9,449 nt of DNA, taken from the IMG/VR virus record IMGVR_UViG_2718218100_000013; one strand, written 5' to 3'. Source of the stretch: a virus. Its lineage: Duplodnaviria > Heunggongvirae > Uroviricota > Caudoviricetes. Positions 7,365-7,459 of this stretch are shown here, piece by piece (within the stretch, counting starts at the first letter, position 1; every line of letters begins with the position of its first letter). Both the position numbers and the translations under genes were made by a program. The notes below the pieces were generated by a model. It had not been told where the DNA came from and did not search any database. It worked only from the letters and a program-made list of their open reading frames with translations.

Positions 7365-7399
7365 AAAAAAACGTCCTCGAACGTTGCCGAACGAGGACG
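7365..7399 (-). terminator. Rho-independent terminator immediately upstream of, and abutting, the alpA start codon
   Basis: Minus strand reads CGTCCTCG-TT-CG-GCAA-CG-TT-CGAGGACG followed by seven U and then ATG of alpA; GNRA-type GCAA loop. On the plus strand the hairpin is preceded by an A run, so it is orientation-specific. Confidence 0.6.
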
Positions 7400-7426
7400 A
7401 TTCTAGGCGGTAGTAAAACGCCGTTT

Positions 7427-7459
7427 GTGTGATATCACACTACCAGCACGTGATATCAC
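7427..7459. promoter_or_regulatory. Two copies of the palindrome GTGATATCAC (the first extended to 14 bp), centres 21 bp apart; operator-like
   Basis: Perfect palindromes at 7427-7440 and 7450-7459. The second overlaps the cargo gene stop codon. They sit between the cargo gene and alpA. Confidence 0.45.

Follow-up and report, generated by a model that had tools for sequence, protein, structure and literature searches.

Immediately in front of alpA, the activator gene of a phage-inducible chromosomal island (PICI) of Escherichia coli, is an RNA hairpin that holds the gene's own Shine-Dalgarno (SD) sequence in its 3′ arm and ends in a run of seven U, and a little further upstream stand two identical palindromes. 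The island is that of IMG/VR record IMGVR_UViG_2718218100_000013, a 9.4-kb element with every gene on the minus strand, and the whole stretch analysed, 9,449 nucleotides, is referred to here as the window. AlpA is both necessary and sufficient for PICI induction, and it is the helper phage that turns alpA on (PMC6092414; PMC11773190), by a helper-dependent inducer that is not known (PMC6092414; PMC11773190; PMC10803314). That the junction as a whole insulates and switches alpA is, on balance, the reading held here, and the part of it that concerns the hairpin is much the firmer: very probably, to judge from the sequence and its relatives, RNA of the upstream operon (the integrase gene int and a gene here called X) folds at this point, is terminated at the seven U in this lineage, and where it reads through is untranslatable. 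In the searched literature on induction of Gram-negative PICIs no description was found of a terminator/SD hairpin, of such dyads or of an int-overlapping regulator. The arrangement in front of alpA, of which the papers searched gave no description, is built on known principles, namely the protective terminator, the SD trap and tandem operators.

Read along the minus strand the junction is AAAAA GTGATATCAC gtgctggtagt GTGATATCAC acaaacggcgttttactaccgcc TAGAAT CGTCCTCG tt CG gcaa CG tt CGAGGACG TTTTTTT ATG (coordinates of the named features are in Table 1). The hairpin itself, CGTCCTCG-tt-CG-GCAA-CG-tt-CGAGGACG, runs from 7399 to 7372, with 7399-7392 paired to 7379-7372 in its 8-bp stem and the GCAA loop at 7387-7384. 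RNAfold gives it -17.0 kcal/mol (z = -4.9), equally stable shuffles numbering 0 of 200, and it survives in both the minimum free energy (MFE) and the centroid structures of a 116-nt context fold. A simple terminator scan overlooked it, solely because of the 2x2 internal loop. A stable G+C-rich stem-loop followed at once by U7 has, as read from the sequence, the anatomy of a strong intrinsic terminator, and the placing of the alpA ribosome-binding site inside a stable stem is at the same time that of an SD-sequestering element. A first-pass annotation made from the letters alone had noticed the minus-strand hairpin with its GCAA loop and seven U before alpA, and on this the sequence and the folding bear it out. 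The U-run touches the ATG directly, no base lying between the two. On one point the first pass needs correcting, for it had seen no room for a separate SD sequence; one is present, GAGGA at 7378-7374, and it is inside the 3′ arm. Rfam returned chance-level hits only for region 7300-7520, none at the gathering score. A competing antiterminator pairing was looked for, and there is none in the 116-nt fold and no upstream complement to the 5′ arm, which is a weak test. Relatives do not share the small hairpin GGCG..CGCC found at 7406-7422.

Is the hairpin an accident of this one island? Relatives were gathered in three ways, via alpA, via the twin-dyad pattern and via homologues of X; the covariation statistics come from an alignment of 25 distinct sequences, and those on the hexamer discussed below come from 20 independent lineages (upstream contexts). 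A hairpin stands at the same place in some 40 distinct sequences, which come from E. coli, Salmonella, Klebsiella and Providencia as well as from metagenomic or viral contigs. Standard pairs fill 93% of the pair cells of the alignment, both sides have changed in 9 of the 12 hairpin pairs, and the 7-bp stem core is paired in all 25 sequences; in a control with the 3′ partner slid, pairing falls to 30-50%. The imperfect cells are all G.U or U.G (22 G.U cells), and as they pair solely on the alpA-sense strand, the selected object is an RNA. The stems themselves are varied, including GCTCTCG/CGAGAGC, GCCCTCG/CGAGGGC, GCTCCTG/CAGGAGC, ACCCTTG/CAAGGGT and GCTCCCG/CGGGAGC, with a wholly different one, CCACCTG/CAGGTGG, in one relative, and the 3′ arm of all 25 variants has an SD-like purine run (CGAGGGC, CGAGAGC, CAGGAGC, CAAGGGT, CGGGAGC, CAGGTGG). 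The flanks to the 5′ and 3′ sides of the stem also covary, being AAAGT/ACTTT in locus L250 and ATAT/ATAT in L177. The MREINEDR-type alpA allele, common in E. coli PICIs, is without the hairpin and without gene X.

The U-tract behaves differently from the stem. A U run of at least five follows the stem in only about half of the lineages (T5-T8 where present), and those that do not have it carry ATTAGATT, ATATCCAT, ATTTAAAT, GTTAACCA or AATCATTT there instead. In locus L260 the upstream gene has its own terminator-like palindrome and the alpA hairpin is kept anyway. Retention of the hairpin without a U-tract, and beside a separate upstream terminator-like palindrome, argues that it belongs to alpA and not to the upstream gene; and with the U-tract absent from about half of the lineages and both hairpin and SD-in-stem universal, it is occlusion, rather than termination, that emerges as the conserved function. 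On our reading the conserved role of the hairpin is to make the alpA ribosome site inaccessible on RNA arriving from upstream, and intrinsic termination is, on this comparison, an addition in the window lineage and some others. A separate observation concerns the 5′ flank of the hairpin, where four loci (L126, L177, L187 and L032) have an ATG (AATGCTCTCG) in frame with alpA, 12 codons upstream of its start and with no stop between; callers of open reading frames (ORFs) extend AlpA through the hairpin in these loci (MLSN...). This ATG is without an SD and is missing from the window, L182 and L200, and it is probably unused.

The two palindromes are the other conserved component. The window holds exactly two copies of GTGATATCAC, at 7450-7459 and 7429-7438, and there were none in 200 shuffles. 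Their perfection and the 21 bp between their centres had been noted in the first pass, as had the overlap of one of them with the stop of the upstream gene, and all of this is exact: the TGA at 7458-7456 is inside the upstream copy, and in all X-family loci the stop codon of X is the TGA of dyad P1. Divergent relatives keep both GTGATATCAC copies exactly, with spacers that are unalignable, and across lineages the layout is fixed, with 10-12 nt from the first dyad to the second and 27-29 nt from there to the stem. The P1 of Klebsiella, GTGAATTCAC, has undergone two symmetric changes that leave it a dyad, and its RNA pairing with P2 drops to 7/10. The same layout is occupied by other dyads elsewhere, GTGAAATCAC/GATTTCAC, GGCGATATCGCC and, in a large group, GGAAnnTTCC. 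Helically phased dyad-symmetric sites that are conserved while the spacer between them is not are what tandem operators are expected to look like, and the earlier proposal that they serve a dimeric regulator gains from the persistence of their self-symmetry and spacing; from these patterns the dyads are likely to be such operators. An RNA stem formed by them is disfavoured, as they are invariant where covariation would be expected and the symmetric Klebsiella change degrades pairing with P2. With centres near -40.5 and -61.5 of the start proposed below, they would be equally suited to an activator that replaces a -35 element or to a repressor that covers that region.

Which protein would read them? 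AlpA was considered and set aside, the AlpA core being identical in L126, with GTGATATCAC dyads, and in L257, with GGAAnnTTCC, and Type-B PICIs with a 92%-identical AlpA having no dyads at all. The product of X (C-terminus ...TWQKYLGR) accompanies dyads of GTGATATCAC type, and a distant analogue, X2 (C-terminus ...LPSGKTIxxWLKDxDID), accompanies GGAA..TTCC dyads. Lineages without twin dyads have a DUF6387 gene in the place of X. In the recombinants L278 and L203/P0019 an X-like N-terminus is joined to an X2-like C-terminus, and the dyads are of GGAA..TTCC type. As dyad type changes with X/X2 and not with AlpA, X is the best candidate for their reader, an assignment to which we give a little less than even credence. 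The first-pass annotation had taken the upstream gene for cargo; it is instead a conserved, int-overlapping, winged-helix gene whose type tracks the dyad type, and is probably part of the switch. Homologues of X were found in Enterobacterales only and the order is always int-X-alpA. No Pfam, PHROG or PADLOC assignment was obtained for X and no Pfam match for X2; that X is a known defence or phage protein was dismissed, the PADLOC and PHROGs matches being merely at noise level. The structural model of X (pLDDT 78) begins with a winged helix of Xis/MerR type at the N-terminus, continues through a beta-rich middle and a disordered linker, and ends in a C-terminal module of three helices, for which no fold assignment was obtained. 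The beta-rich middle is hypervariable, and the C-terminal module is near-identical in homologues that are otherwise ~40% identical. X is also mosaic: among the aligned homologues P0002-P0011 the last ~70 residues, the dyads, the hairpin and alpA are near-identical in proteins whose first 180 residues are only ~40% identical, which points to frequent recombination in mid-gene and to a beta-rich middle domain under diversifying change.

Dyads of this kind are met outside PICIs. In ~55-kb gut phage contigs 3-5 (G)TGATATCA(C) dyads adjoin a near-consensus promoter (TTGACA-17-TATAGT); loci with such arrays are L112, L115, L118, L124, L151, L158, L185 and ~35 more, mostly from metagenome 3300045988. 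The same dyad thus serves as an operator in unrelated phages, and no X-like protein is present in the fragments examined. A link from the dyads to a helper phage by this route was dropped, since the phage contigs with the arrays encode nothing X-like and the region has no INPHARED match. In the prophage-like contig L127 (2165-2195) twin GTGATATCAC copies with an 11-nt gap follow a Bro-N/antirepressor-like gene and precede a T-run, a pair that resembles an intrinsic terminator.

How, then, is alpA itself transcribed? Between the hairpin and the ATG there is no space for a promoter, so that alpA mRNA must either begin inside the stem or contain the trap, which some factor would then have to open, and the first-pass annotation had been correct in posing just this dichotomy of traversing the terminator or starting inside it. 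Flush with the stem is a -10-like hexamer, whose counterparts among the lineages have T or A at the first position, A at the second in 12 of 20, any base at the third, and then A, A and T, each in 17 of 20; TACAAT, CAGAAT, CAAAAT, AATAAT, TAAGAT and AAGAAT are the forms seen in other lineages. Initiation some 7 nt past the hexamer, near 7393, would leave out the 5′ arm, and RNA that begins there does not fold stably (-4.7 kcal/mol, z = +0.6). It is possible, if somewhat doubtful, that alpA's own transcripts start inside the 5′ arm of the hairpin, a suggestion that comes from the hexamer.

The DNA of the inner stem and loop has a further feature, GTTCG-N5-GTTCG. Phased pairs of GTTCG occur in the window at the hairpin and at 204-238 only (3 observed against 0.14 expected), the latter lying in the attR arm, where four GTTCG-type boxes are followed by a doubled GGTGTAGTTAAT motif. 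Just upstream of int and outside the window (7023-7095 of L001) a 74%-identical block has four boxes and a doubled 12-bp GGTGTAGTYAAT. In relatives the loops read YGAAC-N5-YGAAC, i.e., the same boxes flipped, and the att arms of those relatives have arrays of GTTCG or GTTCA. The 12-nt loop is conserved among relatives (AAC..GAA) and that of the window is its reverse complement, an orientation flip that favours reading the boxes at the DNA level. AlpA has a winged helix of excisionase type with a recognition helix that is invariant in relatives. It might be that AlpA, or the arm-binding domain of integrase (Int), also binds the hairpin DNA at these boxes as a feedback site, a proposal to which, judging from the shared motifs, we would give rather less than even weight. 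As to the att arms themselves, the doubled motif differs by integrase lineage (GTGTGGTCAGTT, GTGTAGTCAGTG, GGTGTATCACGT) and the GTTCR boxes are constant, a pattern suggestive of an Int arm site in the doubled motif and of sites for AlpA, as recombination directionality factor (RDF), in the GTTCR boxes.

Put together, the parts would work as follows. On RNA of the int-X operon the hairpin would form, in the window lineage the U7 tail would end transcription, and any RNA that read through would be untranslatable with its SD locked in the 3′ arm. The alpA promoter would consist of the -10-like TAGAAT with no -35, and transcripts starting near 7393, being without the 5′ arm, would escape termination and expose the SD. 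The dyads, at about -40.5 and -61.5, would be the operators of a dimeric regulator other than AlpA, for which X is the best candidate and which could be an activator or a repressor, and AlpA or the arm-binding domain of Int would bind the GTTCG boxes in the hairpin DNA as a feedback site. In its most extended form, which is speculative and on present evidence unlikely to be right in full, many Gram-negative PICIs would have in X/X2 the regulator, so far missing, that senses the helper phage: a modular X (winged helix, hypervariable sensor and operator-linked C-terminal module) would bind the dyads and switch a -35-less alpA promoter that starts inside the hairpin, with AlpA feeding back via the GTTCG boxes. 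If true, a three-layer switch of operator, promoter nested in a terminator, and RDF boxes would explain both the silence of the satellite and its induction.

A number of observations tell against parts of this scheme. The proposed promoter has no -35 element and its site was not flagged by a promoter scan. The conserved AAT just before the stem pairs and covaries with the ATT just after it, and this flank pairing could account for conservation of the hexamer without any promoter; several lineages, moreover, have TTAAAT or TTTAAT there, in which position 2 is not the A that is key to a -10 element. The GTTCG boxes, being 3′ of the proposed start, would be expected to repress rather than to activate. 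The dyads overlap the 3′ end of X, and physical linkage alone could give the co-variation of dyads with X, as it could the tracking of dyad type with the C-terminal module in L278 and L203. AlpA autoactivation has been reported for EcCICFT073, and the dyads cannot explain it.

Three other explanations of the junction were weighed. The alpA promoter could instead precede the hairpin, lying in the 3′ end of X or else at the dyads or ahead of them, in which case every alpA mRNA would have the trap. A trans factor would then suppress termination and free the ribosome site, be it a helper-phage or RNA-binding protein, a small RNA or processing by an RNase. The covarying flanks are in keeping with this, as they imply that the full 10-13 bp hairpin is selected in an RNA whose start is 5 nt or more ahead of the stem, though read-through RNA of int-X explains that selection equally well. 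The conserved 12-nt loop (AAC..GAA) could be a recognition site, but the window's loop is the reverse complement of that in other lineages, a change that destroys recognition of an RNA sequence and keeps the DNA motif. In L260 a perfect TATAAT precedes the stem by ~45 nt, and the literature's lack of a known helper-dependent inducer of alpA (PMC6092414) leaves room for such a factor; no pairing was found to rival the terminator, which the MFE structure of the 116-nt fold retains, and there is no Rfam match. The first-pass annotation had spoken of an attenuation or antitermination gate on alpA: the gate survives, classical attenuation has no alternative pairing to work with, and antitermination of Q type, by a protein whose N-terminal segment forms a ring and which loads at an element between -35 and -10 in a sigma-dependent pause, fails because AlpA is unrelated. 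The AlpA of Pseudomonas is a different and larger protein, with its helix-turn-helix and DNA-contact residues at around 128-142 in a Q-like fold (PMC9371919), and PICI AlpA, of 74 aa, is a single PF05930 winged helix, so that antitermination of the Pseudomonas type was rejected and the shared name put down to coincidence. A leader opened in trans is, overall, improbable.

More improbable still, and about equally so, are two simpler accounts. In one the hairpin and U7 just end the int-X operon, alpA is expressed by low-level read-through or from some other promoter, and the palindromes either arose by chance or form an RNA stem-loop or a terminator-like element belonging to X. The terminator anatomy is indeed canonical, the two dyads are able to pair with each other as RNA, and the twin dyads of L127, followed by a T-run after a Bro-N gene, are terminator-like. 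Against that account, about half of the lineages retain the hairpin although no U-tract follows it, some have a separate upstream terminator-like element, and the SD is constantly present within the 3′ arm. It likewise does not anticipate dyads that are invariant where an RNA stem would covary, the symmetric change of Klebsiella P1 to GTGAATTCAC with only 7/10 pairing to P2, a dyad-hairpin spacing fixed at 27-29 nt across unalignable spacers, or different dyads in the same layout in other lineages. In the other account it is chiefly as double-stranded DNA that the inverted repeat matters: AlpA or Int would bind its two phased GTTCG boxes, in autoregulation or to control excision, and the RNA hairpin would be a by-product. 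The restriction of phased GTTCG boxes to the hairpin and the att arms, the conservation of the box-bearing loop with either orientation tolerated, and the excisionase-type winged helix of AlpA all suit it. Compensatory changes continue in the outer stem, beyond the boxes; the 22 G.U cells pair on the sense RNA only, and the SD is always in the 3′ arm, and a DNA site alone needs neither G.U pairing nor such SD placement. It is compatible with the RNA reading and fails only as the sole explanation. The reading in which the junction hides the alpA ribosome site on incoming RNA, and in which alpA may have its own regulated start, is the one that is retained.

Table 1. Features of the window discussed in the text (position 1 is the first letter of the window)
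Feature	Position	Strand	Remarks
RNA hairpin	7372..7399	-	8-bp stem, 2x2 UU/UU internal loop, 2-bp inner stem, GCAA loop; folding and covariation
U7 tract	7365..7371	-	Abuts the alpA ATG (7364..7362); terminator tail and SD-to-AUG spacer
SD sequence of alpA, GAGGA	7374..7378	-	9 nt before the ATG, within the 3′ arm of the hairpin
-10-like hexamer TAGAAT	7400..7405	-	Flush with the stem; would give a start near 7393-7392
Two phased GTTCG boxes	7378..7392	-	7392-7388 and 7382-7378, 10-bp spacing; candidate AlpA or Int arm-domain sites
Dyad P2	7427..7440	.	GTGTGATATCACAC, 14-bp perfect palindrome; core GTGATATCAC at 7429-7438; centre ~-40.5 from the putative start
Dyad P1	7450..7459	.	GTGATATCAC; holds the TGA stop of X (7458-7456); centre ~-61.5 from the putative start
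alpA	7140..7364	-	74 aa; PICI master activator, excisionase-type winged helix; PF05930, PGAP, alignment
Gene X	7456..8229	-	257 aa; overlaps the int stop by ATGA; candidate dyad reader
Tyrosine integrase	8226..9449	-	PF00589 and PF13356; first gene of the int-X unit closed by the hairpin
attR-arm block	168..240	-	Four phased GTTCG-type boxes (238-204), then the doubled GGTGTAGTTAAT motif

There are precedents for the parts. In the fold-back inhibition of IS10 that Davis, Simons and Kleckner are said to have described in 1985, and in IS50 as Schulz and Reznikoff reportedly found in 1991, the native transposase start is inside the stem and only foreign transcripts fold. IS200 combines a protective terminator at its left end with an SD-sequestering stem (PMC4513863). 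IS10, IS50 and IS200 share with the alpA junction the protection of a dangerous mobile-element gene against read-through, by a terminator together with a stem in which the ribosome-binding site is buried. Here, however, one hairpin does both jobs and abuts the start codon directly, the gene is a satellite activator/excisionase rather than a transposase, the incoming transcription is that of the element's own int-X operon, the DNA of the stem also has phased boxes of recombination type, and the internal start is one that the hexamer suggests. For the dyads the comparison is with class II activator promoters and tandem operators, such as those with CRP or FNR at -41.5 and a second site at -61.5, or with lambda cI at OR2 and the promoter PRM. 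The alpA dyads resemble class II sites in being two helical turns apart, near -40 and -61 of a -10 without a -35; they differ in that both the start and the binding protein are putative, and a repressor occluding the -35 region would fit equally well.

Among islands of the same type, EcCICFT073 (PMC6092414) and EcCIMP1 (PMC11773190) share the order int ... alpA ... pri ... terS, capsid, with alpA as the bottleneck of induction, and in those papers only a promoter fragment, autoactivation and helper dependence are defined (PMC6092414; PMC11773190). In the Vibrio PICMI elements a gene that overlaps int by ATGA, iolg, is essential for helper-induced excision in PICMI115 (PMC10803314). X and iolg are alike in standing between int and alpA, in the ATGA overlap of the int stop, in comprising many sequence families and in presumed constitutive co-expression with int. 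The likeness is one of position; homology was not detected in a profile search with X, which reached Enterobacterales proteins only, and this is a further point against the scheme. The PICMI authors propose a role for iolg in the excision complex, not in alpA control, and describe no operator or hairpin (PMC10803314). A comparison can also be drawn with Stl, the master repressor of the Staphylococcus aureus pathogenicity islands (SaPIs) and PICIs of Gram-positive cocci (PMC6092414). Stl is likewise an island DNA-binding protein with a divergent sensor part, encoded beside int, and it governs the onset of the satellite cycle in response to a protein of the helper phage, a role that X is a candidate to play, as repressor or as activator; X has no sequence or fold relation to Stl and, unlike it, is co-oriented with int and overlaps it. 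If X is the sensor, Gram-negative PICIs would have a functional counterpart to the Gram-positive Stl system. The means by which helper phages induce Gram-negative PICIs has been an open question since 2018, and to it the locus contributes a precise cis-map that is conserved among satellites of E. coli, Salmonella, Klebsiella and Providencia and their relatives. As a compact arrangement, made by nature, that insulates a toxic activator, the layout is also of relevance to the engineering of delivery vehicles based on PICIs.

As to the island itself, the window is 100% identical to a segment of E. coli 2014C-3061 between yljB/cspD and clpS. On the minus strand the gene order is int, X, alpA, a D5-type primase gene, terS and a capsid gene, and these co-oriented int, alpA, primase, terS and capsid genes, with flanking att repeats and a chromosomal site, are those of a Gram-negative PICI. 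The int stop is at 8228-8226 and the X start at 8229-8227, which gives the ATGA overlap. The assignment of alpA comes from PF05930 (E = 3e-16), PGAP calls the same start, and the ATGAAY of the start is kept in relatives; a search of genome contigs with AlpA returned distant relatives only.

Some other features of the window lie apart from the junction. Just 3′ of alpA, a terminator-like hairpin GGCGACC..GGTCGCC followed by TTTGTTTTAT (plus strand, 7094-7123) faces a convergent ylcI-like gene. On the minus strand the same letters encode the conserved N-terminus, MxxKTKATxGGRQ, of a long ORF (7130-6423) that begins 10 nt past alpA with a strong SD and of which PGAP annotates the last 67 aa only (Icd-like); the conservation of this N-terminus may mark a real ORF or may be a mere reflection of the hairpin. 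The ylcI-like gene and the icd-like/primase operon diverge from a regulatory region, the stretch 6700-6800 (L001 9793-9839), in which a 22-bp direct repeat occurs as ACTATTGACGTGGCTGACACCT and ACTAGTATAGTGGCTGACACCT, spaced 25 bp apart, with GTGGCTGACAG as a third. These repeats are candidate operator or activator sites for the main operon of the PICI and have no relation to the GTGATATCAC dyads. In the non-coding stretch between the capsid gene and clpS an 88-nt direct repeat occurs at 315-402 and 852-939 (95% identical, 537 bp apart), and a 28-nt element with the internal palindrome ATCYCGATATGGGGATCACCATATCGGG has two copies, at 820-847 and 938-965. Packaging or origin sequences, or REP-like elements, are among the possibilities for these repeats.

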